Source: Marsupella aquatica (lineage: Eukaryota > Plantae > Marchantiophyta). From it: 64,000 nt of DNA. Made by a program: the position numbers and the translations under genes. Under the pieces are notes generated by a model that did not search any database, was not told where the DNA came from, and was given only the letters and a program-made list of their open reading frames with translations. The DNA lies in the NCBI GenBank assembly GCA_973895155.1, contig OZ316896.1, positions 186,001 through 250,000 on the forward strand, in the 5' to 3' direction. Of the stretch, positions 19,267 through 47,800 are shown piece by piece (the first letter of the stretch is position 1; every line of letters starts with the position of its first letter).

Positions 19267-19277
19267 GGTGTTCTGCC

Positions 19278-24000: not shown

Positions 24001-24371
24001 GTACTCACCTGCCCGTTCGAACAGGCATCCCCAAAAATGTGCCGCAAGGTTGCCTTCGTCCACCCCTCCGTGTTACCCTTCAACTCCCAGTGTAGGTCGT
24101 TGCAGCGATTGATGGCTTCCAGGATGCCGACGATTTTGTTTTCGCAAAACAGAAGGTCGTCGAGCTGATTGGCAGTAGGAGTCCACAAGAACTCGGCCTT
24201 GATAAGACCTCCTCCTAAGAAAGCCATCTTCTGCAGTTCCCAGAGCCGAGCGAGCTCCTGCCATTCTCGAGCTGCTCTCTCCGATTCTTCGTCCTCGTAA
24301 GTCCTGACGTACTCACCTGCCCGTTCGAACAGGCATCCCCAAAAATGTGCCGCTTGATTGACGTTGCTCAT
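21094..24371 (-). pseudogene. LTR-encoded large ORF, copy 1 (frameshifted by a 308-bp duplication, stop at 22144, truncated)
   Basis: ORF pieces 23907..24371, 22144..24063 and 21085..22047 join into MSNVNQAAHFWGCLFE...FVRLPW...coiled coil. Confidence 0.85.
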
Positions 24372-24747
24372 ACCCTCCTTGAGTTGATCGTTGGTATTTG
24401 TTCCAACCCCGAGTGCTTGCCTAAGCAGCTGACAGCATTTGGCCTTCCGTAGTCGTCTGCCCAGTTCGTTCTTGCAAATGAGCCACTATTCCTCGCGAGC
24501 GGTCCTTACCCCTCTCCTCCTCTTCTTCCCTCCCGTTGGTCACCCCTAGCCACCGATGCTAAGCGCGCCCTAACCCTAATTGTGTTCTCTCCCCCGGCGT
24601 CCTTAATTCCTGCCTCGGCCCGGGTTCCATAGTCACCCTTAATTGTTTATATTTTCCTTTGTTTTTGTTCCTATACTAAGGTGTTTCTAGGGTACACTCC
24701 TGCTTTACCATGTAAACCGGCCTAGTGATTCCTGGCTAGGCATCACA
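21094..24747 (-). repeat. 3' LTR (truncated distally) of element 1
   Basis: Begins TGTGATGCCTAGCCAGGAATCAC at 24747 on the - strand, 3 nt after the PPT; collinear with the other LTR copies. Confidence 0.92.
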
Positions 24748-27700
24748 TGGCTCCCCACTTAATTGTGAAGCATCCTCGCGAACAACTTCATCTTCGTCCA
24801 TATAGTATTTCTTGAGGCGGTCGTAATGGATGCAAACTGGGTACACCTCTCCAATAATGTTGGCCAATTGCACGGAGCCATTGGAGAACTTCATGGTTAC
24901 TCTGAAGGGTACTAACCAGCGCGTGTAAAGTTTACCTGGAAACCTATTATACCTACTGTCATAAAGTAATACAAGATCTTCTGTGTGAATACTAACTGGT
25001 TTCAACTTCTTATCATACTGTTGCTTCATGGTATTCTGTCTATATTCTACTCTCTCAGCTGAAATCATTCTTGCCTCTTCTAAAGCTTCTAACCTATACT
25101 CTCGCTCCTTTAGGCTTTCCTCCACTGAAGATCTCTCCTCAATTGTAACTTGAAATGTAGGAATCTCAAGTTGCATTGGTACCAGGGCTTCCTGTCCAAA
25201 GGTTAAGAAAAAAGGTGTATGACCGGGAGTGGATTTATAGGCTAAATTGTAAGCAAAAACAGCAGCAAACAATTTATCATCCCAATCGAGTTTGTTCTGA
25301 GCTACGGTTTTGTTCAATATCTTTCCTATAATTCCATTGGCTCGTTCTGTCAACCCATTTGCCTTTGGGTGGTAGGGAGTAGTAGGCCTATGTCTAACTA
25401 AATACTGCTCATTTAAACGACTAATTATATCATTCAGAAAATGGGTTCCTCTATCACTAACTAATTCTAAGGGTGCGCCATACCTGGTGAAGATCTGCTC
25501 ATACATGAATCGAGCCGTAGTAATTGCATCATCCTTCATTGTCGGCCTGGCCTCTACCCACTTAGTTGCATAATCCGTGGCCAAGATTATGTACTTGTTT
25601 CTTCGAGGATGAGTCAATGGTTTCAGAGGTCCGATGTAATCAATACCCCACTTCTCAAATGGTGCCAGAGGTAGAATAGGGTGCAGTGGATGTCTTGTGG
25701 GCGCCCTTGGTCCTCCCGCTCACTGACAAGGATCGCATTGTTTGATAAACTTATAGACATCTTTGTGCAAGGTGGGCCACCAGTAACCGGCATTTAATAT
25801 CTTTTTAGAAGTGGTTATTGGAGCGAAATGCCCCCCGGCCTCCTCCCCGTGCATAGCTCGTAAGACTCATTTTACTTCTCCCTCCTCCAAACACCTTTGA
25901 ATCGTGCCACTGATTCCATGCCTGTGTAGTACGCCCTTAATGCACTGATATCGTCTGACCTTCCGCAGAAAGACTACGGCTTGCTCTCGGCTTAGTCCGG
26001 GCTGTAATCTGGAAGTGCTGAGAAATTGTAAAATCTCAGGGTACCATGTATCAGCTATTTCCACAATAAATAGCTCCTCGTCGGGAAATCGATCGTCGAT
26101 GCAATCCGTTGCAGGTTCACCTGTGATCCTTGAAAAGAAGTCGGCATTGGCGTGTTGCTTTCCGACTTGATTTTTAGCTCGTAGTCAAACTCCTGTAATA
26201 GCAAAATCCATCTTGCTACCCTGCCTGTAAGGTCCGGTTTATTTACTAGGTACTTCAAACTTTCATGATTAGTATGAAAGATTACCTTGTACCCTAGTAG
26301 ATAATGCCTAAACTTTTTACATGAATAAATGACTCCTAATGCTTCTCTTTCTATGGTGGAGTAGTTTCGTTCGGCATCGGCAAGCTGGCGGCTTGCAAAG
26401 TATATGGGATGGTCCCTTCCTTTCTCATCCAACTGACTTAGTACTGAGCCAATACAGAAGCCTGAGACATCTACAAAGACATGAAAATCCTTGTTCCAGT
26501 CTGGTGCTATCATGACTGGGGCCTCTACTAACATCTGCTTCAATTCCACTACTACTGTTACTCGTTCTGGTGTGGGTTCGAAGTCTGCACCTGCCTTGAG
26601 CATGTTGGTTAATGGTAAAGCTAGCTTGGCAAAATCCTTGCTGAACCGACGATAATAACCAATGCACCCCAAGAAGGATCTCACATCTTTTATGTTCTTA
26701 GGTTGCATAATATCTAGCCATACTGCTAGCTTACCTTTATCAATCTCAATGCCCTTCTTTGATACCTTGTGACCTAGTAGCACACCCTCTGTTACTCCAA
26801 AGAAACATTTATCGGGGTGTAACTTGAGACCTACCTCTCTGCATCTCATGAAGGTTTTCCTGAGGTATTTAGCATGTTTCGATGCCTTCCCAAATACTGC
26901 AAAGTCATCAATGAAGATTTCCATGAATTTTCTCAAGTAGTCATGAAAAATGTTCACCATTAATCGTTGGAACATAGCTGGTGCGTTACATAGTCCAAAC
27001 GGCATACGATTGAAGACATAGATCCCCCATTCCGTGATGAAGGCTGTCTTGATTTGGTCCTCCTGCCTAATCCTGATTTGGTTATAACCAGAGTACCCAT
27101 CTATGAATGAGTATAGTTCATGACTGGCTACCATGTCTAACACCATATCAGTAAAGGGTAAAGGAAAATGATCTTTCAATGTAGCCTCATTCAACTTCCT
27201 GTAATCCTGACAAACACGGATCTTTGGTTTACCATCAGGTCCAGCTTTCTTGGGAACTATCACAATTGGAGACACCCAGTCTGAATGCAGGACTGGAGTG
27301 ATGAATCCGGCTTCCACTAGTTTATCGATTTCAGCCTTGACCATCAGAGAATACTTGGGGTTCATCCTTCAAATCGGTTGTCGAAATGATTTGGCCCCTA
27401 ACATGAGATCAATTCGGTGTTCTCCTAGTTTTGGGTCTACTCCCTTCAGATCTTGGTGACTCCATGCGAACACATCCTGAAATTCAATTAGTAATTCGCT
27501 GATCTCTTTCTCAAGCTCAGGTGCTAGGTCCCGCCCCAAGTTCAGTTCCCTTCCTTCTCCTAAGTCGAGCTTCCGGTATTGCCGTGCTTGGATCATATTA
27601 ATCTGCTTCTTCAAATTCGGGTCCAACGCGGCCTCCAGCCTCTCCAGTCTCATACCTCCATAGACTGGAATCTCGGCGGTACTAGCCGAATTGGTTGACT

Positions 27701-27815
27701 GGAGTTCTCCCTGGATATTAACAGACTGTTCCCTTACCGTTCTGCTTGGTTTTGCATTGGTTGTCGGCTCCCCTTCCTGACTCGGCTCTGGTTTCTTCCC
27801 GTGCATCTTATCCAT
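24736..27815 (-). pseudogene. pol: pol: reverse transcriptase, RNase H, integrase (frameshifts and stops)
   Basis: RT: WVSPIVIVPKK, CQDYRKLN, DGYSGYNQI, MPFGLCNAPA, FIDD. RNase H: VFVDVS..ERNYSTIEREAL. Integrase: HHCC region ~25730-25860, DYATKWVEA, SDRGTHF, PYHPKANGLTER. No chromodomain. Confidence 0.95.
24751..24762 (-). promoter_or_regulatory. Polypurine tract (AAGTGGGGAG) inside the integrase coding end
   Basis: Purine run 3 nt before the LTR start TG; the same arrangement recurs at 63310-63320. Confidence 0.75.
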
Positions 27816-27917
27816 TCCTGCTTCCCTGAGGGTCAGGCCATCGTGCTCTTCCGGCTTCTAGTAGGGCCTCAATTTGTTCTGCCCTTGTGATCGGCTTGTA
27901 AGCCGATCCTTTGGTAT

Positions 27918-30914
27918 TTAATTTGTTGCCGATGATAGACGGCGTTGTGGATCCTGTCGGCTCTGCCACAACGCCCGAGGAAAATCCACTGTCTCTGGTG
28001 TAGCTCCCCACCTAGCCGTTTCATCTAGCCGATCCGCCTCTTGTGTCTCCTCCAGAATTGAAGCTAAAAATGTTGACTCTATGGCAAAACAATCCTCGGT
28101 CTCTTCTTCACCTTCCTCCATGTTACTCTCCATATGTTCGTGCCATAGTCCGCTGGGGGGTACTTCCGGTCCAAACACACTTTCTTCGGTTAGGTCAGTG
28201 AGGCATTCTAACCAACGTACTTCATCGGCTGACTCGAGTCCACTGTCGTACCCATCTACTTCCCTGATGCTTTTCCTACAGTCATCCTTAGTGTCCCATG
28301 ATACCGTGATAGAGGGGGTCCCAAAAGTGAACTCCTTCTTACCCCAATCTTCTATTACCTTGGCTAGGTACAACCATGGCCTGCCAATTAATAGTCGAAA
28401 CGACATAGGGTTTACTGGCTTCATCACTACATAGTTAATGCTAAAGAAAATACCTCCTATCTCAGTTTTGATGCCGGTTAACACCCCCGTGGGAATGACC
28501 TGATACCCATTGGCCATGTTTAACACTCTTCCAGTCATCTCCGGCGTTAGACCCCATCCTTTTGTTGTTGAATCAATCATAATACATACCCTGGATCCTC
28601 CATCAATGGGTACTCGCAATAATACTTCTCCTTGAATCATTAATGGTAATGCTGGGGCTCCTTGATCTTCTTCTATCATCAGCACATCGGATCTGGTTGC
28701 TACCTTGGGTAATCTCGGTTTGCCGAGAATTGCCTTCCTTAACTGCTTCCGGAAGTACGGGCTATTTTTCAATAGTTGACCTACGGTTGCCGAGACTCTA
28801 GATTCTAGCACATCTTTAGCCAGGTCATAGGGAACTATCGGCTTCTCTTCTGGCGGTGTCTTCATCTTGGCTTTGGTCTGTTTCTTCACGCTGGTTTCCA
28901 CAGTCGTTGGATCCTCCGAAGCAAATAGTGCTTTTGCTCGTTCCACATCCTTGGCTATGGCTTCGGTATTCTCCAGGGTTTCTAATTCTCGCAGTTGTTC
29001 CTTAACACTAGCCGTAATAGCGGGGTAGAACAACTTAGGGTGATCTCGATTGAAATCGCTGTCCTGTGAAGGATTGGGGTCACTGGTGAGCTCATGGCTT
29101 ACCTGTGTTGTCGGCGCCTTTCCTTCCCCTTCCATCGACGTTGACGAAGAGTCGATTCTTTCTTCCTTATCCTTCCCTTTATTTTTGGCCAGCCCATCCC
29201 ACCTTTCCTTCCTTCTGGTGGATCGAATAGAGACCCGGTAGCAATCATGATCCAAATCTTCTTCTGAAAATGTTGATAAGGCCTCGGCCTCATCATCAGA
29301 TGGTCCGAACTCTGCCTCGGCATCCGTTTGCCATCCGAGTTTGATGTGGTTGATTTGAACTCCTCCGGGGGTAGTACCTAGTAGTAAAACTTTGACTAGC
29401 AAGAGCTTATGATTTGCGGCCAGGCCTGCCAACCAAGTAGGACATTGTCCTAGCATGTGACCCTCCTGTCGGCATCCCATACATAGCTGAGCTGGTTGTC
29501 CATCACCTTGTTTGCGTGACGCATTCGGGCATTCTCTAGCAAAATGACCAGGTTGACCACAATTATAGCATGCCGCAAATCTTTGCATATTCAGCCTAGG
29601 AGGTACTGACGGATTTTGAATAATCCGAGGATACATCTCTCCCGGATTGTTCCTTAATCCTGACCAGAGAGATGCAGGTCTGTTGGATAAGTCTCGTGCT
29701 CCAGTCTCACTAATGCCGAAAACACTATCAGCAGCATCCCCTAAAAAGTACTCTATTTCTCCCTGACATGGTCTAGCCTCAGTCACATGCCGAACATTAC
29801 TAGTATTAAGTTTAGGACACGCATCTTTATGGTGTCCGGTTTATAACATAAGGCACACCATACAGAGCTATCCTCCTGTACTACCTTCTTCTTTGGTTTT
29901 ACCTCTGCTATTATAGCCTTAAGCTGCTGGGTAAGAGCTACGAGATTATCTGGCATTTTAGCCTCTAGTTTGACTTTCAACTTCCCCCTCCTTCTGCCCT
30001 TCTTTTTCCTAGTTTTCTTCTTCTTCAGAACTAGAAGATGACTCACTCTTGCTACTTCCACTATTCGAGCTTGAGTTATCACTTCTTGACTTCTTAGAAT
30101 GTTTCTTTTTCTTATCTTTTTTCTTATGGGGTGATCCTTCCTCCGATGAGGAACTCTCAGACTTAAGTTGTTTCTTCCGGCTTGTGATATCTGCATTAAT
30201 GTATAATTGAATATTCTTAATTGCCTCGGCTAAAGTCTCTGGGTTCTCCTTCCTAATTGCAAAACTCATCTTCTGTGGCAAAGCATTCACTAACCATTGA
30301 AGTTGCATACCTTCAGATGCATTGGTCTTTGTACGTCTTACCAACTTTTGGAAGCGTTGCAAGAACTTCCTGAAGGATTTGTTCTCCTTGAACCGAAGTT
30401 GTCCCAACTTCAGCACTGCTAACTCTGAAGTTCCAATGGGTCGAAACTCCTTGACAAATAATGGTCTGAAAGTATTCCATATGGCTTGATCTTCCACGTC
30501 CAAGGCTCTATACCAAGGCCTAGCCTCACCTTTGAACAGGCCGGGAAGAATTTGCATCTTGATGGCCGATTCTCCATTTGCTGCAGTAGTTCCTTCGAAG
30601 TCATCCAACCATTTGTCCGGATCCTCATCTCCTCTACCATGAAAGGCCTTGTAATGAATACGTGACCGTTGGCTCAGTCTGGTCCCTGGCCTCTCGTCTG
30701 GCCGTGCCTCTGGTTCCCCCATGTCGGTTGGAGACTCACTTCTCCTTACTGACCCTTCTTCTGGTATGTCTTCTTCGATGCCACTTTCAGTTACGGAGCT
30801 ACTAGCTCTTTCTGCCCCTCTCAGTCGCTGTGTATCATGCCACCCGGCGAGCTGCTGCAAACGAGCTCTCTCCCGTTGAATCGCTCTTTCCTCCCTCGGC
30901 ATAGGTTCAGTCAT
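27918..30914 (-). pseudogene. gag: gag (capsid plus three CCHC zinc knuckles) and aspartic protease, frameshifted
   Basis: FHGRGDEDPDKWLDDFE capsid motif; knuckles CALCYKPGHHKDAC (after frameshift repair at ~29835), CYNCGQPGHFAREC and CMGCRQEGHMLGQC; protease IDGGS...LLIGRPWL. Confidence 0.9.
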
Positions 30915-30960
30915 TACCTACGCTTCCTTCCTAGCTTCATATCTCACGGCTTAAGAAATG

Positions 30961-30983
30961 CCCCCTCCATCTAGCGCCAAAAA
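30961..30983 (-). promoter_or_regulatory. Primer binding site
   Basis: On the - strand, LTR end CACCACA is followed by TTTTTGGCGCTAGATGGAGGGGG, a TGGCGC-type PBS as in plant non-chromovirus gypsy elements. Confidence 0.8.
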
Positions 30984-33900
30984 TGTGGTGCGTCCCATGG
31001 CTCCCCAAACCCAAGAAACCCCCCCCGCACAAGCCGATTCCTGCAGGTTTGGTGCTCGGCGAGGCCGTTTCCGCGGCTTAGCGGCATGGGACGCTGCTAA
31101 CCTCCTTTCTACTACTACTATTAACATTTTACACACATATACTGGACAGATCCTTCATCGGGTCATGAGATACGCAGTCGGCCTAATCTAGGCCTTCTCT
31201 TGTCTTTCCCTCCTGTTGGTTAGGTATATTTGGATTCCGCCGCCGGAATGATCCCCAATTGGTTTGGTTAAGCCGCTAAGACCTCTCTCAGCTCGACACA
31301 TCCAACTCTCACTCCCTTGCTTACTTCCCTTCTACTTGTTGATGTGGGCACTCTTCACACAAGTTAATGCAACACACAAATAGCAAAATGACTCCTTCTG
31401 ACTGAGTTATACCATGCACTTGCAATACAAACAGTACATCTCATACACAAGCTCTGCGAACTAAGCCGTGAGGCCAACTCGATTCAGTTCTTAGGTATGA
31501 GGAAACATGAATATACACAAGGGTCACTGTATGACTAACCGAGAGCTTCTCTTACTACTTGATCCCAGCCCTGCTGGTGCAACTAAAAACTTGCTAAAGA
31601 AGAGGCCCTGAACTCCCCGCAGCCCAGGTACTTATCCTGGTTGTGGATCCGCCTGATTCCTTGCAGCGTAAGCCTAATCTACCTACTGTAATCTACCTAA
31701 CTGTAATCTACCTATGTACAGCGAGGTAGGAGCACAAGTGTCGTCCTCACCCGTGGATCCAAAATCCCACTAATCTAAGTGTCACGGCCGTCTCCTGGTC
31801 CTGATCCTAAGTCTAAACTTGGAGATCAGCGCCCGCCCTGCCCACTCACGCCTCCTACCTCCACGTCCGCCCTCCCTAAAAGGGACGGCGCCCTTACACC
31901 GTCATGACACCGGTGGCTGGTCCTCAATGGACGCCCCCAACGCTTCCTCCGCAGCCACTGCCGTTGGTCCCTCCTCTGACAGATTACCTGCCCCTGACCG
32001 AGTCAACTCTTCATCGGCCTGACTGGGTCCACCCTCGGCTTCGGCCTCTGATATGGCTACGGCCTCTAATATGGCTATGGTCTCCCCGGCATGTCCTAGT
32101 GGAGGATCCGGTACCTCGGCAGCATTACTGGTTCTCCCGGCCTCGGCCTTGCTATCTCCACTCCCTAGGATCGGTGGATCCACCGCCATGCCGATGCCGG
32201 AGATTGGTGCCGGGTTTATCTTCTTGGTCATAATGGCTTGAGAAGCCGTATAACTCCCAGACCTAGAAGGTTTCCGCTTCTTCTTCTTCCCTATTTTGAC
32301 AGCCGGTTCCTTCCCCTTGCCACTTACCTTTGGCACCGGGGTGAGTGTTTCGGCTTGTCCTTCGGCCAATACTACCCCTGGTAACTGGGTTTCCCCAATT
32401 GGAGTTGGACCTGATGAAGCCAAGCATTTAAATACTACGGCTTGTGTCTTCAGTCGCTACGTTTGGTTGTCGGCCCGCCGCTGTAGGTTCTCCATCTTCC
32501 TTGTGATTTCCTCCAACTCCTCCTGGGTCTCGTCCAGGTCCTTGCGTGCCTCCTCCAGCTCCTTATTGGCTTCCTCCAATTCTTTCTTTAAGGTAGCCCT
32601 CTCCTCCTGGGTTGCTCTTAGCTCCTTGTCGAGCTCTGCTACGACCACAGACTCCATCTTATTCATCTTGGCATAAGTCTGGTCGAGCTGGTCGTCCTTT
32701 TCACGCAGGTCGGCCTTGAAGCTGGCCGTTAGGGACGCAAGCTCCTGCTGTAGCACAATAATCCCTTGATAGGATTTCCCTAACTCTGCTTCCTTCTGCT
32801 CAAGGGCTCTGCGGATATCTTTGAGCTCTCCTTTCAACGCCCTCTCCCTTCTCTGGTTCTCCGCCATGGCTCGATTGTTGGTTGCTAAGTGGGCCTCCTA
32901 TGCATCCCTTAGCTCCTGCTTCCATTTCTCTCTTTCCTTGACTGCGCCGACCAACTCTCCTTGGGTCCGAGTCAGTTTATCTTTGATAATTTGATTGTCA
33001 GACTGAGCGGTATCCAACTGCCCCTGCATGATGTTTAGCTCATGCCGCTTAATCCGCAGCTCATCTTGGGCTTTCTTGGCCACCTACAGGACTTCCGCCT
33101 TGGCTTCCTTCTCCCTAAGCCGCTGGATGACCTCGTCCTTCTTGCTTCTCTCCAAAGCCACCGCTTCTTCTAATCGGTGCTTTTCCAACATCTCCCTCTG
33201 GAAAAAGGGTCCCTGCTCCAACTCCTCCCCAAAGATGCTGAGCGCCAGGTCCCCACACATCTCCCCGTACTCCATGGCTCTATCCTTAGCATAGGTGGAG
33301 TAACTAGAAGTCATCGGCATCAACCACCGCGGCCTCTGCTCCCAAGCCGCCTTGCGGATTTCTTCTATGGTGGCAAGAGGGTTGCTTCTTTTTTCGGCAA
33401 GCCGCCTGATGTCCTCCGGCCAATCTCCTCCTAGTAATTCTTTCTCCCTAACCAGGACTGCTTTCTCTTCCTCCCTAAGTTGCTCCTGAAATTCTTGTGC
33501 CGTCTGCTTTATGCCGTCAAAGCTCGGGGGAGCAACCTCTGGTGGGGGAGACTCGGGGCTACTATGCTGGGTGGGGTCCCCTCGCACTACTCTTGGAAGT
33601 GTGGGGATAAATCGGCCACAGGTCCTTACTCCTGGAACATGATGATCCAACCCATAGCCAGAGTTATCATTACTATAGTCCTCCACCGCCTCCTCCACTA
33701 CTTGGACTCTCGGCTTCTCCCTTTGTTCCCTTGGTCCTGTCGTGCAAACGGCCTTACCGATCACGGGCTCTGGTTCCTCTTGTTTCCAAGCTATCGTCTC
33801 CCTCTGCTCTCCACGGGAAGGAGCCTTAGGCTGCTCTGCCTCTGATTCAGGGCTTGAGGCTCCCACGTACATTTGTACTCCCGGCTTGTGTTCCGGCCTC

Positions 33901-34341
33901 CCTCCTCCTTGGCTCCGGTAAAGGGGTCTTCCCTTCTGAGTTGGCTTAGGCCGACCTCTGGGGCAATGTCTTGTATCAGTACCGTTGCCATTGCCGTTGC
34001 CGTTCTCTTTTCCTTCTCCAGCAATTTCAGCAGATTTTGCATGCCTGGTTGCTGCATCGGCAAGTCTTCTTTCCTTGGCCGAAACACCTGCTCGATCGTC
34101 GGACTGTCGGGCTGGTTGGGCTTCTCTGGTGCCGGCCCCTGGTCCGGAACCTCCTCCGGTGCCCTTGCCGATAGGGGAAGTACTGGGGCAAAGATTTGAC
34201 TTCTGGCATACCGGCACAACAGCGGCATGTGATAGCCAAGCCGGGACACGCTTTCCACGCCGATCACCTGCTGTTCCTCCTTCAAGATCTTCTTCAGTTG
34301 GTTGAGGAGGTACCCGTTGTAATCCCGGCTTGGGTCTGGCC

Positions 34342-37300
34342 TGTGGTGCGTCCCATGGCTCCCTGAACCCAAGAAACCCCCCAGCTCAAGCCGATTCCCG
34401 CAGGTTTCGCGCTTGGCGAGGCCATTTCCGCGGCTTAGCGGCATGGGACGTTGCTAACCTTCTACTACTACTATTAACATTTTACACACATATACTGGAC
34501 AGATCCTTCATCGGGTCATGAGATACGTAGCCGGCCTAATCTAGGCCTTCCCTCGTCTTCCCCTCCGTCTTGTTAGGTATGTTTGGATTCTGCCGCCGGA
34601 ATGATCTCCAATAGGCTTGGTTAAGTCGCTAAGACCTCTCTCAGCTCGACACATCCAACTCTCACTCCCCTGCTTACTTTCCTTCCTTCTAGTTGATGTG
34701 GGCACTCTTCACACAAGTTAATGCAACACACAAATAGCAAAATGACTCATTCTGACTGAGTCATACCATGCACTTGCCATACAAACAGTACATCTCATAC
34801 ACAAGCTCTGCGAACTAAGCCGTGAGGCCAACTCTATTCAGCTCTTAGGCATGAGGAAACATGAATATACACAAGGGTCACTGTATGACTAACCGAGAGC
34901 TTCTCTTACTACTTGATCCCAGCCCTGCTGGTGCAAACTAAAAACTTGCTAAAGAAGAGGCCCTTAGCTCCCCGCTGCCCAGGTACTTATCCTGGTAGTG
35001 GATCCGCCTAATTCTTTGCAGCGTAAGCCTAATCTACCTAACAGTAATCTACTTGCCCGGATCTACCTATGTACAGCAAGGCAGGAGCACAAGTGTTGCT
35101 CCTACCAGTGGAACCGCAATCCCACTAAGCTATGTGTCAGGGCCGCTCCTGGTCCTAATCCTAATCCTAAACTTGGAGATCAGCGCCCGCCCTGCCCACT
35201 CACGCCTCCTCCCTCCACGTCCGCCCTTCCTAAAAGGAACGGCGCCCTTGCACCGTCACGACACTGGTGGTGGATCCTCAATGGACGCCCCCAACGCTTC
35301 CTCCTCAGCCACTGCCGTAGGTTCGTTTTCTGACAGATTACCTGCCCTTGACTGAGTCAACTCTCCATCGGCCTGACTGGGTCCACCATCAGCGTCGGCA
35401 TCGGCTCGGGAATCATTCTTGGCTACGGCCTCAGCCTCGGCTACGGTTTCCCCGGCTTGCTCAAGAGGCGGATCTGGGATACCGGCCTCATGATTGAGTA
35501 GTTCGGCTTGGGCCGCACCTTCCCCACCCTTGGTGATAGCGGGATCTATTGCCGTGTTCATGCCGGAGGTTAGTGCTGGGTCTACCTCCTTGGTCACCAC
35601 GGCCAATGGAGTCGTATTACTCCTTGACCCTGAAGGTTTCCGCTTCTTCTTCTTTTCTGGTTCGGCAGCTGGTCCCTTCCCCTTCCCACTTACTTCCGGC
35701 ACTGGTGCAGGTGGCGCGGCTTTTTCTTCGGCCAGTACCACTCCTGGTAATTTGGTTGCCCCAATTGGAGTTGGGCCTGATGAAGACAAGCACTTAAATA
35801 CTGCGGCTTGTTTCTTCAGCCGCTCTGTTTGGTTGTCGGCCCGCCGCTGGAGGTTCTCCATCTTCCTCGTGATTTCCTCCAACTCCTCCTGGGTCTCATC
35901 CAGGTCCTTGCGCGCCTCCTCTAGTTCCTTCTGGGCTTCCTCCCGTTCTTTCTTCAAGGTAGCCCTCTCCTCCCGGGTTGCTCTTAGCTCTTTGTCGAGC
36001 TCTGCAATGATGACAGACTCCATCTGATTCATCTTTGTGTAAGTCTGATCGAGCATCTCGTCCTTCTCCCTTAGGTCGGCCTTGAAGCTGGCCGTTAGGG
36101 ACGCAAGCTCCTGCTGCAGCGCCATAATCCCTTGATAGGATTTTCCTAACTCGGCCTCCTTCTGCTCAAGGGCTCCGCGGATTTTCTCGAGCTCCCCCTT
36201 CAACGCCCATTCCTTTCTTTGGGTCTCCGCCATGGCCCGGCTGTTGGCTGTTATGTGGGCCTCCTCTGCATTCCTCAGCTCTCGCTTCCACTTCTCCCTC
36301 TCTTTAATCGTATCGGCCAACTCTCCCTGCGTCTGAGTCAGTTTATCCTTGATATTCTGATTATCAGCCTGCACGGTGTCCAATTGCCCCTACATGATGT
36401 TCAGCTCATGCCGTTTAATCCACAGTTCATCTTGGGCTTTCTTGGCCGCCCTTAGATCTTCAATCTCGGCTTCCATCCTCCTAAGCCGTCGAATGACCTC
36501 GTCCTTCTTGCTTCTCTCTAAAGCCACCACTTCTTCTAACTGGTGCTTCTCCAACTGCTCCCTATGGAAAAAGGGTCCTACCTCCAACTCCTCTCCAAAG
36601 ATGCCGAGCGCAAGTTCCCCACACATCTCACCATACTCCATGGCTCTATTCTTAGCGTCGGTGGAGTAAGTAGAAGTGATCGGCATCGCCCATCGCGGCC
36701 TCTGCTCCCAAGCCGTCTTGCGGATCTCTTCAATCGTGGCTAGAGGTTTGCTTCCTTTTTCGGCTAGCCGCCTGATTTCCTCCGGCCAATCTCCTCTTGG
36801 CAAATCCTTTTCTCTAGCCAGGGCTGCCTCCTCTTCCTGCCTGATTCGCTCCTGAAATTCCTGCGCCGTCTGTTTTATGCCGTCAAAGCTCGGGGAAGCA
36901 ACATCTGGTGGGGGAGACTCAGGGCTACTCTGCTGGTTGGGGTCCCCTCGTACTACCCTTGGAAGTGTGGGGACAAACCGGCCACAGGTCCTTACTCCTG
37001 GAACGTGATGGTCTGACCCATAGCCGGAGTTATCATGGCTGCAGTCCTCCACTGCCTCCTCTACTTCTTGGACTTCCGGCTTCTCCCTCTCCTCTTCGTC
37101 CGTAGGAGCTTCAGGCAATTCAGCCTCAGATTTAGAGCTTGAGACTCCCACATACATTCGAACACCTAGCTTGGATTCCGGCCTGATTCTCTCCTTGTCT
37201 CCAGCAAAGGGGTTTTCTCTTGTGAGCCGGTGTAGGCCTACCTCTGGAGTAGTGTCCTGCATTATTGCCGTTGCCGTTGTCGTTGCCGATGCCGATCTCT

Positions 37301-39032
37301 TTTCTTTCTCCAGTAGTTTCAGCAGACTCTGCATGCCTGGTTGCTGCATCGACAAGTCCTCCTTCCTTGGCCTAAACACCTGCTCGATCGTAGGGCTAAC
37401 AGGTGGTTGAGGCTTCTCTGCTACCGGCCTCGGTGCTGGAGCTTCCTCGGGTGCCCTTACCTGCAGGGGAAGTACTGGGGCAAAAGTCTGACCTCTGGCA
37501 TACCGGCACAACAGCGGCATGTGATAGCCAAGCCGCGACACGCTCCCCATGCCGATTACCTGCTGCTCCTCCTTTAAGATTTTCTTCAATTGGTTGAGGA
37601 GGTACCCGTTGTAGTCCCGGCTTGGGTCTGGCCTCTCTGCCAGATAGACCTGTGCCTTGCCGATCTCTGCCCTCGGCAAGTTACAATGCATGGTCACCCG
37701 CAAGAAGTGGTCATCTCTCCTATGTGCATGGTCATCTCTCCTATGTGCGGGTTGGTGCAGGTGTTCCGGAAGAAGCCATTCTTCGTTGATGGCCCGGGGA
37801 ACGACCGGAACTCCTTGTCAGGCAAGGTCTTCCTGGTATCAACTTTGGTCTTATTGCCTATCGGCAAGCCAAACACTTCGGCAATCACTTTGGGAGTAAG
37901 ATAGAAATCCTTCCCATATATCCTCGTGCAATTGGTCTCGGGTTCCCATGACCCCACGAATTCTAATAGGTCTGACTCCGGTACCTCCGGCTTCAGCCAT
38001 GGTAATCTTACAAAGGCCTCTAAGCCGGATCCGGCCATGAAGCCTTGGTACTTCTTGGTCTGCATGGCCGTAAAGCATGCATCCTCCTCCCGTGCAAAAT
38101 GTAGTTGCACCTCCACTGGTAGGGTTGCCGCCCATCCCTTCCAGGTGTCATCCCTAGTTGGAATGGCCTTGATGGGATCAACCTCCTCCTCTTCGGCTTC
38201 TCCCTGCCTCCTGCTCTGCTGCTCGGCTGGCTTCTTTGGTGCCGCCGACCTCGTTCTTTTTGCCGGGGTGGCTTCATCATTGACGGCTCCCTTCCTCTTC
38301 ATCTCTGCTGCCGTGGAGGTTTCTTCTAGCACCGTTGCCTGGGTCCACCTTTCCGTGCTACCCTTCAATTCCCAGTGTATGTCGTGGCAGTTCTTGATGG
38401 CCTCTCGGATGCCGACGACGCTGTCTTTGCAAAAGAGAAGATCGTCGAGCTGATTGGAAGTAGGAGTCCACAAGAACTTGTCCTTGATGAGTTCGCCTCC
38501 TAAGAAAGCCGTCTTCTGCAGCTCCCACAATCGAGCGAGCTCCTGCCATTCTCGAGCTGCCCTTTCTGATTCCTCGTCCTCGTAAGTCTTGATGTACTCA
38601 GTTGCCCGTTCGAACAGGCATCCCCAGAAATGTGCTGCTTGATTGACGTTGCTCATACCCTCCTTAGGTCGATCGTCGGTATCTACTCTCTCCCCGAGTG
38701 CTTGCCTAAGCAGCTGTCAGTAGTTGGCCTCCCGTAGTCGTCTGCCTAGTTCGTGCTCACAAATGAGCCACTATCTCCTGCAAGCGCTCCTTACCCCTCT
38801 CCTCTTCCGGTCCTTCCTCCCGTTGATCCTTCCTAGCCGCCGACGCTTAACGCGCCCTAACCCTAATCGAGTTTTTACCCCCAGCATCCTTACCCCCGGC
38901 CTCGGCCCGGGTTCCATAGTCGCCCCTAATTGTTTATATTTTCCTTGTTTTGTCCCTATACTAAAGTGTTTCTAGGGTGCATTCCTGCTTTACCCACTTC
39001 ACTGGCCGAGTGATTCCTGGCTAGGCATCACA
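34342..39032 (-). mobile_element. Complete 4,691-bp solo LTR of the ORF-bearing family (subfamily B)
   Basis: TGTGGTGCG...GGCATCACA flanked by a perfect 5-bp TSD TGGCC (34337-34341 and 39033-39037). Confidence 0.96.
35256..38656 (-). pseudogene. LTR-encoded large ORF, near-complete copy (~1,125 aa; 20-bp duplication frameshift at ~37710-37748, one stop at 36390)
   Basis: ORFs 37694..38656, 36390..37703 and 35256..36383 are collinear with the other copies. Confidence 0.88.
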
Positions 39033-39221
39033 TGGCCTTTCTGCCAGGTAGACCTGAGCCTTGCCGATCTTTGCCCTCGGCAAGTTACAATGCATGGTCA
39101 CCCGCAAGAAATCGATCATCTCTCCGATGTGTGGGTTGGTGCAGGTGTTTCGGAAGAAGCCATTCTTCGTTGATGGTCCTGGGAACGACCAGAACTCCTT
39201 GTCAGGTAAGGTCTTCCTGGT

Positions 39222-39817: not shown

Positions 39818-40708
39818 TAGTTGGCAAATAGTATTATGCATATATTATATGGTAAGTAAGGTAGCAATAACGACTCCAAAGCCAATTACAACGGGCTAGG
39901 GGAGTTGAAGGTGGTCATATAAAATCAACGGACAACAACAAGTAGGATTAGGGTTCTGACCTAATCCAGGCCAGATTATGCAAGCCCCTAAGTGGTAGCT
40001 TTGCGAGGGAGGGGACCGATACTCTGTCAATCACGCATTTCCGTGTACGCTGTCTTGACCTTGTGAGGGGGGGCGACTGTCAGTCGATTGAAGGTGGTGG
40101 GTAGGAAGATTGCGTAGCTCATTTCAATCGGTGGAATGACCACGGTGATAGGAAAGTTTTGGGGCTGTTTGTTTGAAGAAGCACGACAGCTCATACCCAC
40201 TTACAAAGACAAAGAGCCGGAACGCGCAGCTAGGGAACGAGCGGAGCTTGCACGATTGTGGGAATTCATAAGACAACATTCATAGGCACTGAGGAAGTGT
40301 TGGAAAAGTTTTTGTGGATTTCCACCAGTGCTAAGCTTGACAAATTGCTGATTAGGGAGAATCGCGTCGTTGGAATTCGGGAGGCAATCAAGAACGCAGG
40401 ACAGCCAGTGTGGGAATTAAAGGGTCACACTGCGGCGTGGACTAAGGAAGCTATTCTTGGAGAGTATTCAGGATCAGAAGTAGACAGGTTATCTGCCGAT
40501 TTGCAACTGCAATTTGCATGGGAGGAGTATGATGTCTTCAGTGCTGTCCAAGATAACAAGTATTCTGGATATATGAATAACATTGGTTTGGACGGATTCG
40601 TCCGGCTGCCTTGGAGGTTAGTTGATATACCAGACAAAGATCTGTTAGACTTTGTAGGATGCTGGGAGGCTTTTTCCAACATGACACTAATGTATGGGAA
40701 GGTTGTAG

Positions 40709-43156
40709 TGTGACGCCGATGACATGGTCCTTATTCTATAATCTGAGTAACTAGGTTGCTGTATGCAAGGAGTAGCTATTGATACCGCATAACAATTAGC
40801 AAGATGGCAAGAATAAGGGCAATCATGGCGTTAAGAGTAGGGAAATAAAAGCTATGTCGCGGGTGGTCGGTGACCATATCTCTTTCAATATGTCACCAAA
40901 TCCGGATCTGTAAAGAGCATTGGAAAGATCTGGTCAAGGCGAGTAAAATCGATATAAAACACTCGGGAAACAAAGGTGTATTAAGGAAGATACGGCCTGA
41001 TTAGTGTAACGGGTTAACTTGTGGCCGGAATTGGCGGGTTCGGCTTCAGTTTCGGGTTAACCCAAGCTCGGCCACGGCTTAGCTTAGGTAAGCACGCCTT
41101 CAGCTTATCTCAGGTAAGCACGGCTTCAGCTTATCTCAGGTAAGCACGGCTTCAGCTTAGCTCAAGTAAGCACAGCTTCAGCTTAGGCTTAACCCGGGTT
41201 CGGATTAGATTGATCCCGGGTTAGACTTAACTCGGGTTAGCCTAAACTCGGGCTCAGGTTAGCATAGGTAAGCTCGGGTTCGGGCTCAGCTTAGGCTAGG
41301 TTAGCGGATAGCAGATAGCGGGTAGCAGCCTAACCCAAGACCACGGGTTAGCTCTACTCGGGTTAGATAGGATAGCTAGATTAGCCGAACTCGGGTTAGC
41401 TATGTAACTCGGGTTAGTGCAGCAGTGAGTACCCCCTCTCGGTTGCGGGGGCATAATTCTCTATGTATTTGACCAAATCGGCTATAATTGACCTCGTTGG
41501 AAAGAGGAGCTCAAGCCGCTTCCAACGCTGCTATCCACGCAGCAAATGGTTGAATAGAGAAATTGGGAGAGGAGGCGCAAGCTCGCAAAAACCATGGAGG
41601 AGGGCCAAATCCGAAGTACATAGCCAATTCGAGATAGAAATAAAGTTGCGAGTTAGGGTTCAGTAGTTAGAGATAGTGACGGCTTTGTTAGGGCTGGGAT
41701 GGGGCTCCAGCAACGTAGCATCCACCCATTTGGGCTCAATGAGAGAGTATATAGAGCAGCCCCCCGGTAGAGGCAGGGGGGACTTCAGTTGTGTGATCTC
41801 ACTTAGACTAAGCAGCAAGGAGGAGCTCTGTGCAAGCAAGGCTGGACTTGGACGCTGCGTGTTGGGGAGAGCTTGGTTGTGCTATTACTCAGGGAGTAGT
41901 CAGCCAAGCTTCACAACAACGGGTTGCTAGGTTTGCGAGTTGGATTGTGGCTCTTTCTAGTGGGCAGCACAACTGGGTTCTTTTCCCCTGATACAGAGCC
42001 TTGGTGATAGGTGATGTATTGGTGATTGTAAACTGTGGGGAGGATTTCAATTCGATTTGTGGTGAGCACATTAGGGAGGCTGAGACACTGATTGAGGGGC
42101 AGTAGGAGGAGCATTTATAGTTCAGTCTGGCAAGGCTACGTGATCCATGGGGAGTCCCGGCCTTTGTCTGGTAGAGAGCACTAAGGGATTTATGGCCAGA
42201 GCTGAGCTTGCAGGGCAAGCGTAAGGCCGGGCCTCATTGCAGTCTGGGATAGATCGTCGTTAGGCCTGGTACCAGCTTTGAAGTCGAGTCAACTATGCAT
42301 GCGTAACTTGATGTTCTGAATTGGAGGACCGGTGTGAGATCTGTATGTGCCCCCAAGAATGAAGTGCAGTGAAGGAGGTTGAGTTCAGGATTGAGTTTGC
42401 AAGGCAAGTACGGGATTGGTTTGAGTCCAATCTACCGTCGCAATCTGGAGTGAGCCGGGCTCAGGTTCAGGATTGAGCTTGCATGGCAAGCATGGGGCTT
42501 GCAGGGCAAGCACGTCACAATCTGGAGGAGACAGCCTTCGGCCCTAGTGTTCGGATCAAGTGTTCTCAGTGAACTATTGTGTGAATCTAATTGAGTTTTC
42601 CTCTCAGGCCTCATTTCTCTCATGGATGTGTGTGTGTGTGAGGCAATCTGAGTGTATGATGGGACTAGCAGCGCCACTGAGAGGTGTACAGGGTGCATTG
42701 AAGCGGGCTGGGTAAGGACTGTCATAGCTCTGATTGCTGAGAGTGGAATGGCAGAGTGGTGGGGCAATGGCTTAGAAGTCCCTAAGCCGGGAATCAGTCA
42801 GGAGTCACTGGTTTATGGGTACATTCCGGCGGCGGAATAGAAACATACCTATGATAGTAAGCATACGTATAGACCTATGCGCACCGTAGCGCTAGGCCCT
42901 GTGGGTACGGGCCCGATATGAAGACCCCTTCTCACCAGAACTATCATGAGCGCAGATCTGATCCCCAACCTTGGTTCCTTGGGATTGAGCTTGGGTGATG
43001 TGTGATAGAGTTTTGCTATGATAGTCTGGTGTTAAGGGCATAAATTGGTGTTTACCGGCCTTCACAACATCCCTTCGTGATCCTCAAGTACAAGGAGATG
43101 GTTTTGGCACCCATAGTGACATTTTTGGTGTTAAGACCCATGTCAATCGCGTGACA
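40709..43156. mobile_element. Solo LTR (2,448 bp) of a second family
   Basis: TGTGACGCC...GCGTGACA with TSD TGTAG (40704-40708 and 43157-43161); the host ORF reads YGKVV|ELTP across it. Confidence 0.92.
41030..41420. repeat. Degenerate tandem repeats within the solo LTR (26-bp GGCTTCAGCTTATCTCAGGTAAGCAC units, CTCGGGTTAG motifs)
   Basis: Visible reiteration. Confidence 0.8.
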
Positions 43157-44542
43157 TGTAGAACTAACACCAGCGCTAATCAAAGTCGTCTTTGCTTTAC
43201 CACAAGGAAACAAGACCAAGGTGGAGCAGAGGAAGACGTTACCAGATAATCAGTTTTGATCGTTTCCAGGGCCCTCCACTAAGAACGGGTTCTTTAGAAA
43301 TCAATGTACTAATCCACATATGGGGCAGTTGATTGATTTTCTAAGAGTAACGCTACACTGTACATTGCCGAGGGCAGAAATTGGCAAGGCCCAGGTGTTT
43401 TTAGTCGAGAATATCGACTCAAGCCATGATTACAATGGCTATCTGTTAAGGCAATTGAAGAAGGCAAGAGAAAAATCCGGCAACACAGGGAAGGGAGAAT
43501 TCCCCATCATGGAGCCAAAGGTGGTAACACTGGATGTGGTGAGGAATCCGTTGCGACGGCCTACTTGAAATAACCCATACGCAAGCATTTACCTGATCGA
43601 GAGGAAGATGACTGCCGAAGAAAGAAAGAAGCATGACGAGCAGATGGATTCAGAGTTGGAGGATGGAAGCCAAGGCCGAAGCCAGGAGAGGTTGGTACTT
43701 AGAGCTTCTGGTTGGGTTCAAGTTAGTAGAAGAACCTGTGGAGGATAGTCAGCCAGCGGCAGCCAGGCAATACTCGGAGGAGGAGATTGGGGGCTTTGTA
43801 GAAGAAGTAGGCATACATAGTAGTCAGGTTAATGTGGAGGACTATGATGAAGAATATGTTGATCATGGGGAGAGGCCAGTGCCAGGTGTTAGGACGTTGG
43901 GAAGATTTTGTAGAAGACTTCCATCGGTCTTCTATGGCAGGCCAGAAGACCAAAAAACCCCAAAGTCTCCTCCACCGGATGTAACACCAAGGGAGTTCAA
44001 CAGAATGAAGGAGGCCGAGGCAGGAATTCAAGAGAAACTCAAGGAGTGGGAGGCCCGGAATGAAATGCAAGAACGACAACTACCAGGAGGAGATTGGTCG
44101 AAAGAAATAAAACGGCTTAGTGAGAAGCAGGCCGAGCCTCTCACTGACTTTGATCAACTACGGGCGGAGGCTTGGGAGAAATGACCTCAATGGCAGATGC
44201 CAATATCACCTAGGAGGTCAAATTACGCAAGAGATTGGGCTAAGGAGTATGGAGACATGTGTGGACTCTTAGCCTTAGAAATTTTTGGCAATGAGTTAGA
44301 ATCTGGGCCATTTCTTAGAAAGGAAATGGCTGATCAAACAAGGTTGGAGGAGGCAATGACATTGGAGCAACTGAAGAAAGAGGAAATAATCGATTGGCTT
44401 CCCAGGATGGAAGCCAAAGTTGCTAAGACGAGGATTGATCGGCAGATTCAGCAAGATCTGTTGGCTAAGCAACAAGAGTTGGAGGTTGCGAACGACCAAT
44501 TGGAAAGTTACCAATTGGACAACCAGCGGATCAAGGAAAAAT

Positions 44543-44863
44543 GGGTATAGCAACGGAGACAGGAAACAAGTAAACATGAATTTTTTTCCTGTTTTTAATA
44601 TGCTGTTACTAGGAAAAAATCACTCTTACCAGGAAAAATGACAATTTAAAAATGTCTCCTTAAACATGTTATTTCCAAAAAAAATTAACAATGCAACATT
44701 TTTGGCTAGCTTTGGGCGCTAGCAAAAAAACTGGTCGACCAAAAAAAAACTTTTTTTTCCTCAAAAAAAAATTCCACCCATTTTCCTGTTACCAGTTTTT
44801 TTCCTGTTACGAGTTTCTGTTATTAAATCATGTTTCTTGTTTGTTGTCGTTTGTAAACACCTC
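44543..44863. mobile_element. 321-bp MITE (Mutator- or hAT-like) inserted in the old LTR ORF
   Basis: AT-rich; imperfect TIRs (..AAACAAGTAAACATGA versus TCATGTTTCTTGTTT..); ~8-bp TSD GGAAAAAT/AGAAAAAT; the host codons KEK|LTK rejoin on removal. Confidence 0.75.
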
Positions 44864-47800
44864 AGAAAAATTGACCAAGGTACAGCTAGAGTTAGCCAAT
44901 ACAAAGGAAGAAGTACAGGGCCTTAATCGGCAAGTTGAGAGACTCAGATCAAAGGCTAAGGAGCAGCTCACTCAGAGTAATAAAGCCTTGGCAGAATCCC
45001 AGAGGAAGCAAAACAAGCTACTCGACCGGCTAGAGGCCATGCGTGAAAAGCATGAGGAGACAACTTGTACAACTGCCAATGACCACCTAAACCGAGTACA
45101 ACAAATATGGAAGGAGCTTCAGGTGGAGTTAACAAAGACAAAGGAGGCATGGACGGATGAGGTCACAAAGTTGGAGGCCATCAACGACTCGCAGAAAGCA
45201 GCTTTAGATAAGAAGGAGTTTGAGATTGTGCAAATCTTAAATGAGGAGCTAAAGGCCGCCAAGGAAGAGATATTGCGGCTTAACGATGAAGTAGAAGACT
45301 TATCTCAGGAGTTGGAGGAGGCCAAGGATAAGATGGTCGGGTTGCAGAGGCATGCTGACAATCAAATTGAGAAGCTAAAGAAGTATGCCAAAGTGGGACA
45401 AGGGTCACCGACTGGAAGGCTTCCCGTTAGTGGCATGGTAGTCGGAAATACTGCGATGCCAAAGCCGAGCTCAATGTTGTTAGAGGTGACTGGGGGAAAG
45501 CAATGCAGTTGGTGGCGGATCTGGCAAAAACATTCATGGGGCCAGCAGGTAATAATGGAATGCCCCTTTAGGCCATGCCAGAAGAGGTCAACATCATGGC
45601 CGCTCACATTTGTGGTACTGTAGTTGTGAAGGCAACTGTGGTAGAGGTAAGTAATGCGGATCAACTTGGAGCTGCGGTGACAGGTTCTGACACTAGTACT
45701 GCTTCCATGGATTACAAGAACATGAAACCGTGGGTGATCGAGACCGAGCGCATTGGGGAGCAAGCTTGGATAGAGGAAGTGAAGGCCAATGCTATCCAAT
45801 GAGGATGTTGCCAATGCCGCAAAACTGGAACCCAAAGCCAAAGCAAAGGAAGCCAAGGGGAGCAAGCCAAAGCCGGATGCAGAGGAATGCGCGCAGAGTC
45901 GAAAGGTTCGGGATTGCCTCCGGTCATCTGACAATTAAGGCGGGCCAGTCGTCAGTTGGAAGGAGGACGTGGCGAAAGGAGAAGGACTTGGGCTAGAAGA
46001 GCGCGGCCGTTGTAGGATTTGGACAAGGCAAGTAGCGCTCTATCGGCTTATATTGCTTAGATAGTATTAGGAGTCCGGGTCCCTCAGGTTCCGGCTTAGT
46101 CAGGTTGAATTTGTTTTAGATTAATAAACAAGAATATCACGGTGGAAGGTCGTGATTGAGTGGTTAGGATTTCCGCGGTTCTTTGAGGTTACGTTGCAAG
46201 GATAAAAACCTAGACAGCGTGGCTTGGGGGCTTTTTCTTAGTCAAGACTTTAGTGTAAATTTGTATTATTGTGAGCACAGGAAGTGTGATGCCTAGCCAG
46301 GAATCATTAGGCCAGTGTAAATAGTAAAATCAGGAGTGTACCCTAGGAAACACCTTAGTATAGTAACAAAAACAGGGAAATATAAACAATTAAGGGTGAC
46401 TATGGAACCCGAGCCAAGGCTGAAAGTAAGGACGTTGGGGGAGGGAACACAATTAGGGTTAGGGCGCGCTAAGTACCGGCGGCTATGGGTAACCAACGGA
46501 AAGGAAGACCAGCCCAAAGGGGGGGGTAAGGACCAAGCGCAAAGAATGGCGGCTCATTTGCAAGCACAAACCAAGCGGACAACTACGGGAGGCCAACTGC
46601 TGTCCGCTACTCAGGCAAGCACTCGGGGTGGAAGCAGATACCGACAATCAACTCAAGAAGGGTATGAGCAACGTCAATCAAGCTGCTCATTTTTGGAGAT
46701 GCCTGTTAGAACGGGCAACTGAGTACATTGGGACCTACCAGGACAAAGAATTGAGAGAGAGCGGCTCGAGAACGGTAGGAGCTTGCTCGACTGTGGGAGC
46801 TGCAGAAGTTTGCTTTCTTAGGAGGAGAACTCATTACGGCTGAATTCTTGTGGACGCCTACTGCCGACGAACTCGACGATCTTCTATTTTGTGAGAACAA
46901 AATAGTCGGCATCCGGGAGGCCATCAACCATTGCAATGACATACACTGGGAGTTGAAGGGTAGCACAGAGGGGTGGACGAAGGCAACCGTGCTAGGAGAA
47001 ACATCCACGGCAGCCGCTATGAAGAGGAAAGGGAACAACAATAAAGAAGCCACCCCTGCAAAAAGAACGAGCTTGGCGACACCTAGGAAACCAGCAGAGC
47101 AGGGAAGCAGGAAGCAGGAGGCAGGCGGAAGCCAAAGAGGAGGAGGTCAACCCCATCAATGTCGTTCCAACAAGAGATGACACCTGGAAAGGCTGGGCGG
47201 CGACCCTCCCCGAGGAGGAGCAATTACACTTTGCACGGGAAGAGGATGCATGCTTTACGGCTATGCAGACTCGGAAATACCAAGGCTTCATGGCCGGATC
47301 CGGCTTGGAAGCCTTCGTAAAGTTACCATGGCTGAAACCGGAGGTGCCGGATTCAGACTAACTAGAATTTGTGGGATCATGGGAGCCCGAGACCAATTCC
47401 ACAAGGGTATATGGGAAGGATTTCTATCTCACTCCCCGGGTGATTGCCGAAGTGTTTGGCTTGCCGATGGGCAATAAGACCAAAGTAGATACCAGGAAGA
47501 CCTTGCCAGACAAGGAGTTTTGGTTGTTTCCAGGGCCATCAACAAAGAATGGCTTCTTCCAAAACACCTGCACCAACCCGCACATAGGAGAAATGATCAA
47601 TTTCTTGCGGGTGACCATGCATTGTAACTTGCCAAAGGCAGAGATCGGCAAGGCACAGGTCTATCTGGCGGAGAGGCCAGACCCAAGCCGAGACTACAAT
47701 GGGTACCTCCTCACCCAACTAAAGAAGATCTTGAAGGAGGAACAACTGGTGATCGACATGGGAAGCGTGTCCCGGCTTGGTTATCATATGCCGTTGTTGT

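Follow-up and report, generated by a model that had tools for sequence, protein, structure and literature searches.

The stretch of DNA analysed here, which we call the window, comprises 64,000 nucleotides of the liverwort Marsupella aquatica (positions 186,001 to 250,000 of contig OZ316896.1, assembly GCA_973895155.1). It holds several copies of a retrotransposon long terminal repeat (LTR) that encloses a long open reading frame (ORF). A first-pass annotation, made from the sequence alone, had proposed that the unit at 34342-39032 on the minus strand is such an LTR, and this was borne out by self-comparison of the window and by the way in which the copies join the primer-binding site (PBS), polypurine tracts (PPTs) and target-site duplications (TSDs). 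The unit, copy A, is 4,691 bp long, starts with TGTGATGC and ends with GCACCACA; its termini are TG...CA with a 7/8 inverted match, and self-comparison of the window revealed no direct repeats of its ends inside it. The five copies that the annotation had counted (here A to E, Table 1) were recovered in this way. The junctions it described are exact: B meets the PBS at 30983, while E and D meet a PPT and the end of an integrase frame at 24748 and 63307. The two lone copies, A and C, do have perfect 5-bp TSDs (TGGCC and GGAAG, respectively). What had been missed is that A is nested in B, that C is nested in a diverged sixth copy, F, and that both outer ends are missing from the element which B and E bracket. 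A whole element with both complete LTRs and a TSD is not found among the window copies.

Copy A is 92.6% identical to D over 4,713 columns, 85-86% to B and E, and 80-84% to C. B and E, each without its outer end, are 96.5% identical; they differ at 68 of 1,966 sites, 21 of which fall within one 200-bp bin, a single divergent patch. Public contigs (Logan) helped to place the boundary. In run X2, 42 contigs exit the unit at 58681 into mixed flanks (agreement 0.36). Contig ends by an inner purine cassette (59522, 59580) had a high agreement of 0.73-0.89, as expected of subfamily variants; resembling these and not insertion flanks, they give no sign of a short-LTR class. The depth of X2, which is not a copy number, was 366k-1,285k in LTR bins and 131k-195k in internal bins, and in both deep runs the depth of the LTR tail was about that of the core domain of the ORF. 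We regard a Ty3/gypsy LTR with an ORF wholly inside it as the nearly certain architecture. Several contig joints in runs X2 and X3 link the interior of the LTR to its 3' end (58681), the pattern expected if the family nests in itself.

The ORF of copy A, wholly within the LTR, makes up 72.5% of its length. It had been described as one sense frame of about 72% of the LTR; the position and size stand, but the single open frame does not, for A is divided into three open pieces by a stop at 36,392-36,390 and by a frameshift that lies next to a 21-bp duplication, near 37,730-37,700. The LTR boundaries, the ORF position and the contig evidence uphold two further claims, that each integration carries two copies of the gene and that the ORF is kept in solo LTRs. 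We compared the copies A-E by codon analysis along the frame of A (1,123 codons, stop codons skipped). The ratio of nonsynonymous to synonymous divergence (Ka/Ks) was 0.16-0.34 in all ten pairs, and within the core domain it was 0.00-0.10 in nine pairs and 0.30 for B-E. Control frames (+1, +2 and antisense) gave 0.78-1.67. Because the in-frame ratio is well under the off-frame value of about 1, the ORF is a real gene under purifying selection. At the two in-frame stops of D, 404,952 of 405,023 and 415,816 of 418,488 units of X2 depth have another base (>99% of the summed depth); both stops are therefore private to D.

The encoded protein consists of a conserved N-terminal block, a putative VANC/PMD-like domain, an acidic and proline-containing linker, a helical block, a coiled coil and a C-tail with the motif KKKKRK. 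Upstream of its conserved ATG, three candidate signals are kept in all four aligned copies: TATAAA at LTR position +95, TTAGGGTTAGGG near +167 and GGTAAGG near +238. An ATG at +116 was considered as the start and rejected, as it lies 261, 258, 259 and 262 nt from the conserved ATG in four copies and no third-position excess is seen. The non-coding tail that follows the ORF is conserved beyond synonymous sites (A-C distance 0.11 vs Ks 0.52).

Table 1. Features of the giant-LTR family in the window (positions of the window)
Feature	Position	Strand	Remarks
Solo LTR copy A (4,691 bp), inserted in LTR B	34342..39032	-	TSD TGGCC at 34337-34341 and 39033-39037
Non-coding 5' part of LTR A	38657..39032	-	region ahead of conserved ATG
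LTR-borne ORF in copy A, ~1,130 codons	35256..38656	-	three open pieces
Predicted VANC21-like core domain in A, frameshift-interrupted	37482..38146	-	modelled from open copy E, 22912-23556
Non-coding 3' tail of LTR A, 914 bp	34342..35255	-	PPT-like purine cassette at its start, ~35255-35205
5' LTR B, main piece	30984..34341	-	adjoins PBS
5' LTR B, part beyond A insertion	39038..39221	-	truncated at 39221
PBS region	30965..30983	-	TTTT then TGGCGCTAGA...
Internal region, 6,236 bp, decayed	24748..30983	-	gag (Retrotrans_gag, zf-CCHC), RT, RNase H, integrase
PPT AAGTGGGGAGCCA	24748..24760	-	adjoins LTR E; overlapped by end of integrase frame
3' LTR E	21094..24747	-	truncated at 21094; 308-bp tandem duplication
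Complete 3' LTR D of second element, 4,626 bp	58681..63306	-	
PPT and integrase end of second element	63307..64000	-	91.6% identical to 24748-25443
Solo LTR copy C, nested in F	46285..53461	+	TSD GGAAG; insertions ~48922-50045 and ~51920-53262
Copy F, ORF part	39900..46284	+	ATG 40136, TATAAAA 39918; 5' end not visible
Copy F, tail	53467..54033	+	aligned to A's tail as far as shared terminal CACA

Copy F, absent from the first-pass annotation, encodes the same protein on the plus strand. Block by block, its product is 30-79% identical to that of A in amino acids (aa), and its tail aligns to the tail of A with a score of 96, the best of 200 shuffles reaching 49. No PBS follows this tail. With its 5' end lost, F displays the order ORF, tail and end in an old copy; alone it is no proof that the ORF lay inside the LTR of F. 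The ORF of F is split by another LTR element at ~40709-43069 (+) that starts TGTGACG, and similar starts occur at 17104 and 54189. Between B and F, where both are truncated, a fragment with a terminal poly(A) run (39222-39820) looks by eye like a long interspersed nuclear element (LINE).

The integrase frame crosses the PPT and stops 12 nt within the LTR, and because it reaches that far there is no space for an internal extra ORF. The order of the Pfam domains fits Ty3/gypsy, and the best solved relative is Ty3 reverse transcriptase (RT; E 8e-66). No Pfam match to a protease was found in the internal region, nor one to a chromodomain; the integrase terminates at the PPT. An extra (archaeal-type) RNase H (aRH) had no match in the five internal ORFs, a 335-bp unscanned gap containing the zinc-binding motif of the integrase; having no extra RNase H, the element is not Tat. 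The element is a non-chromovirus Ty3/gypsy, and as a whole it would be about 15.6 kb long.

The RT is 74% identical to environmental proteins, 57-58% to proteins of Riccia sorocarpa and at most 50% to angiosperm proteins; the named matches at 47-58% are Athila-like or from Riccia. In a quick tree of 66 rows, hand-picked to cover 42 of the 120 available proteins and 23 of the 79 loci and bearing clade labels of our own without REXdb references, the window RT grouped with Riccia, environmental rows and the related locus L001 (SH-like approximate likelihood ratio test 99), separate from 31 seed-plant Athila-like rows. Two rows to which we had given the label Tat grouped with Athila, and the tree is thus without a true Tat, Phygy or Selgy reference. 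Judged from these sequences, the RT appears to lie outside the seed-plant Athila clade. The element shares two traits with Athila (REXdb), the 5-bp TSD and the lack of an extra RNase H. The PBS of Athila is mostly that of tRNA-Asp/Asn; the window PBS reads TGGCGCTAGA, differing from the TGGCGCCG of L001 and of a second locus, L005. Phygy and Selgy are tabulated in PMC6317226 as elements of 4.4-10 kb that have 4-bp TSDs and lack extra ORFs, and as tabulated both are excluded by the 5-bp TSDs of two out of two solo LTRs; the ORF is a further difference. Liverwort clades lacking the extra RNase H are mentioned in the accessible text of PMC13468544. An exhaustive profile search of 1.84 billion proteins returned 28 homologs of the ORF (best E 2e-40). 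Ten were looked up: three are from the liverwort Calypogeia fissa, in keeping with a liverwort host, and seven have no organism label.

Comparison with L001, whose RT is 61% identical to that of the window, suggests how the gene came to lie inside the LTR. In L001 the order is integrase, purine cassette, a 745-aa sense ORF (4213-6447), PPT, TGTGATG, an LTR of ~1 kb and PBS, so that the ORF is internal. The PPT cassette of the window matches the LTR-adjacent cassette of L001, and the purine cassette after the window ORF's stop matches the one that follows the L001 integrase; each match was the best of 158 strands with a score reached in none of 300 shuffles, although both motifs had been chosen by eye ahead of testing and the two types of cassette have changed places with respect to L001. 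Because each window cassette matches one in L001, two PPT-like cassettes flank the ORF in both elements. The LTR of L001 appears to start past the downstream cassette and that of the window past the upstream one. The ORF may descend from an internal sense extra ORF at the 3' side, of the Athila/Transposase_32 kind. Plus-strand priming sets the 5' edge of an LTR, and a switch to the polypurine tract upstream of the ORF would have put the ORF inside the LTR; the PPT-like cassette just past the stop may then be a remnant or serve for priming internally. The layout of L001, in which a 1-kb LTR follows an internal ORF, suggests how an LTR can become five times as long when priming moves to another site. 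An alternative origin is that the ORF was inserted into an LTR.

L005 was considered as a case of the same architecture, its 1,267-aa ORF occurring twice in a 6,190-bp repeat, and was rejected since the repeat resembles a contig overlap: it begins ~100 bp past the integrase stop and stops short of the LTR end, and the PPT and TG lie beyond the ORF, with the LTR at ~4888-6320. Aligned directly, the L005 and window ORFs showed no significant similarity (E 0.19). The 1,267-aa ORF of L005 (1037-4837) and the 745-aa ORF of L001 are intact internal extra ORFs without a Pfam match, and they are likely to be more members of the fold group described next.

The 215-residue core domain was modelled with AlphaFold. 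A 10-row alignment gave an unusable model with a mean predicted local distance difference test score (pLDDT) of 33.6, and a 30-row alignment one of 84.9, with a predicted template-modelling (TM) score of 0.84 and three of five models near or above 80. Compared with 48,161 solved chains, this model had one match at Z >= 5, VANC21 bound to DNA (Z 8.2, root-mean-square deviation 3.9, 202 of 215 residues aligned; Z 8.1 in a repeat comparison), the next match having Z 2.1. As a Z of 8.2 is near the best that the tool typically gives for models without a clear match (7-8), the match owes its weight to the margin over the next one and to its cover of the full domain. Foldseek likewise placed VANC21 first of 36 (TM 0.49), but with an E of 0.4, and the sequence identity to VANC21 is 9-11%. 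We predict a VANC21-like fold with moderate confidence, and kinship of the core domain with the VANC/PMD fold seems to us quite probable. Structural kinship between PMD and VANC, and predicted coiled-coil oligomers of VANC and an Athila domain, are reported in accessible parts of the literature (bioRxiv 2024.09.27.615353 and PMC13547354 for the former; PMC13547354 for the latter).

Sequence profiles point in the same direction, more faintly. A profile built without L001 ranked the internal ORF of L001 first of 2,236 ORFs (E 8.5e-6), followed by two Athila-clade ORFs, L040 (1e-4) and L030 (0.12); the latter reached E 3e-7 against Transposase_32, under the cut-off. With hhalign, Transposase_32-type ORFs were matched at E 0.0012, compared with 0.086 for a reversed control and at least 0.43 in 20 shuffles, but at a probability of just 19%. 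Both Atlas queries returned Transposase_32/ATHILA clusters at an embedding similarity of 0.83-0.89, which serves as a lead only. None of the five window domain pieces and none of the 28 homologs reached a Pfam cut-off (Transposase_32, ATHILA ORF-1, PMD and DUF1985 included), and the Pfam matches of the ORF are limited to a weak coiled coil. A sequence-profile search of PDB gave no matches, a viral fold library nothing at E <= 0.001 and word-indexed searches with the ORF no matches; a metagenome scan with the domain yielded 128 pattern matches, none confirmed, and a viral scan with the RT 0 of 14. We consider the protein a likely member of the VANC/PMD/Transposase_32 fold group, and since that group is already known from internal extra ORFs of plants, what is new is the position and size of the gene and not the kind of protein.

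We propose that the gene encodes a DNA-binding, coiled-coil factor of VANC/PMD fold that would shield the family from host silencing, a reading to which we give a probability of about one half. The ORF would lie in U3, have a TATA promoter of its own at the 5' end of the LTR and yield a transcript polyadenylated in the tail, whereas the genomic RNA would begin within the tail. Every intact LTR, including a solo one, would in that case form a self-contained cassette that expresses the gene and acts in trans. The nuclear protein would oligomerise, bind a DNA motif specific to the family and keep the chromatin of the element open. For VANDAL21, VANC21 is described as countering silencing, and the targets of VANC proteins as tandem arrays of short motifs, in the accessible text of PMC10398659. 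That a VANC-like protein has its promoter, its gene and its target together in each LTR is a more tentative proposal, which we think less probable than the protein's role itself. If it is true, solo-LTR formation, the usual purge by the host, would seed the genome with trans-acting protectors. If, in addition, the same fold is present in Athila-type 'env-like' ORFs, VANC-type anti-silencing would have existed in plant gypsy elements since early land plants, predating the VANDAL systems of dicots.

Several findings weigh against this account. Across four copy sets, no 6-8-mer was consistently enriched in the non-coding DNA of the LTR (best fractions 0.05-0.06, unshared), nor do the non-coding parts contain a tandem motif array. 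A second promoter was not identified in the LTR tail. Host PMD proteins are reported to promote silencing of transposable elements (available text of PMC5418596), so that the VANC/PMD fold leaves the direction of the effect unfixed. Finally, the ORF is broken in all five copies A-E, at different sites in each; both solo LTRs of the window are among them, which refines the earlier idea that solo-LTR formation leaves the gene behind. Selection may act solely on master elements.

Most probable among the alternatives, but in our view still improbable, is that an accessory factor of the same VANC/PMD fold has another job: chromatin tethering of the integration complex, nuclear import or plain transactivation. 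The lack of a target-motif array would be readily accommodated, retrovirus-like accessory roles have been proposed for extra ORFs (PMC7264820 and PMC11963269, in the parts accessible), and the nesting of the family in itself (A in B, C in F, and the Logan joints ending at 58681) could reflect targeting. Such nesting would, however, also be expected if the family is very abundant and the DNA rich in repeats, and the sole solved structural match is a DNA-bound anti-silencing factor.

A little less probable again is that the gene is the same but sits within a giant R. The sole promoter would be the TATA at +95 and the poly(A) site would be in the tail, giving a U3 of ~0.1 kb and an R of ~4 kb; early polyadenylation would yield the mRNA of the ORF, and read-through or splicing from the conserved GGTAAGG would yield gag-pol. 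The TATAAA, TTAGGG repeat and donor-like GGTAAGG kept in four of four copies agree with this, as do the TATAAAA at a similar offset in F and a tail that, judged by eye, has no equally clear TATA. Yet the minus-strand strong-stop DNA would have to exceed 4 kb, and gag would have to be translated from behind an ORF of 3.4 kb. Moreover, the tail is more constrained than synonymous sites and has the length of the entire 1-kb LTR of L001, both of which fit a holder of ordinary U3-R-U5 signals.

That the unit is no true LTR but a short LTR plus internal ORF, a mini-element like a terminal-repeat retrotransposon in miniature, or a DNA transposon with TG...CA ends is very improbable and largely refuted. 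The inverted match of the ends, a PPT-like cassette followed by TG past the stop codon and the want of a copy with both complete LTRs and a TSD around the whole element would suit it, but the entire unit adjoins a PBS and two PPTs exactly, two solos have TSDs at its outer ends, no direct repeats of those ends occur within it, and the contig agreement at the inner cassette as against the true end, together with the similar depths of tail and core, points the same way. An env-like membrane protein or a decaying, functionless passenger, suggested by the sense orientation 3' of pol, a coiled coil like that of env-like extra ORFs and the breaks in every window copy, is the least probable of all: no membrane segment is found (the maximum Kyte-Doolittle average over 19 residues is 0.63-0.86 in five of five open pieces), purifying selection is strong and the protein is conserved in F and in 28 outside homologs, so that by Ka/Ks and hydropathy both versions are refuted for the lineage as a whole.

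Other features of the window lie beside the giant-LTR family. LTR D ends in a coding stretch (58481-58680, +), so that it seems to have been inserted into a host gene or a copy of one; the translation of this stretch resembles what we take to be a HemK/N6AMT1-type methyltransferase. One of the insertions in LTR C contains a 19-bp tandem array of 13.9 copies (49652-49918). A CACTA-like element (Transposase_21, DUF4216, Transposase_24) occupies 6402-15096 (+), and the ORFs upstream of it with PHD-finger and BRCT hits are possibly captured chromatin-reader domains or a neighbouring host gene. Two local direct duplications of ~650 and ~730 bp, outside the giant-LTR family, are found at 17456-20734.

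Genes inside an LTR are known from an animal retrovirus, mouse mammary tumour virus (MMTV). Its sag protein is unrelated to the window protein and far shorter. The precedent, named in the first-pass annotation, is real: MMTV sag/naf, which is located in U3, is an ORF inside the LTR like that of the window, and the MMTV ORF has its own LTR promoter (accessible text of PMC9412291). Among plant elements, Retrosat2/RIRE3/FRetro3 and OTA combine LTRs of >3 kb (up to ~5 kb) with an extra ORF, but ORF0 of Retrosat2 is described as lying upstream of gag-pol and is treated apart from the LTR, and the accessible portions of PMC3485330 and PMC6317226 describe no coding inside these LTRs. Phygy, Selgy and the aRH-less 'Tat zero' elements of non-seed plants resemble the window element in being non-chromovirus, in having no extra RNase H and in an internal region filled with coding sequence, and the window RT groups with Riccia proteins; the 5-bp TSDs, the inferred length of ~15.6 kb and the extra ORF set the window element apart from Phygy and Selgy. 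Reviews place the extra ORFs of plants in the internal region (PMC7264820; PMC11963269, as far as available). In the literature searched, which mostly does not cover subscription journals, there was no precedent for a plant LTR encoding such a gene, and the accessible parts of PMC11728184, PMC12844716 and PMC12885004 add none. LTRs are treated as non-coding and surveys of extra ORFs are framed on the internal region, so that a 3.4-kb gene under selection in an LTR would escape the usual annotation. A gene-bearing LTR also changes what a solo LTR is.

In its protein the window element has two points of comparison. VANC21 (DUF1985) of the Mutator-like VANDAL elements shares the predicted fold, a transposon as carrier and a coiled coil (PMC13547354, in part, for that of VANC). 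VANCs, however, are encoded by DNA transposons and are called dicot-specific in the same accessible text, whereas the carrier here is a retrotransposon, the identity is 9-11% and no target-motif array is seen. The sense extra ORFs of Athila (Transposase_32, PF20167; ATHILA ORF-1, PF03078) and the PMD/TRP28 ORFs of Ogre/Retand are, like the window ORF, found 3' of pol in non-chromovirus gypsy elements; all have a globular domain followed by low-complexity sequence and a coiled coil, and weak profile and language-model links connect them. They differ in that the Athila, Ogre and Retand ORFs are internal (PMC7264820 and PMC11963269, in the accessible text), as in L001 and L005, while the window ORF is present in both LTRs and survives in solo LTRs; unlike the Athila kind, it has no Pfam match and comes with an RT that groups outside the seed-plant Athila clade. 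For such extra ORFs of plant gypsy elements, the predicted fold match offers a testable role, namely sequence-specific DNA binding of the VANC/PMD type.

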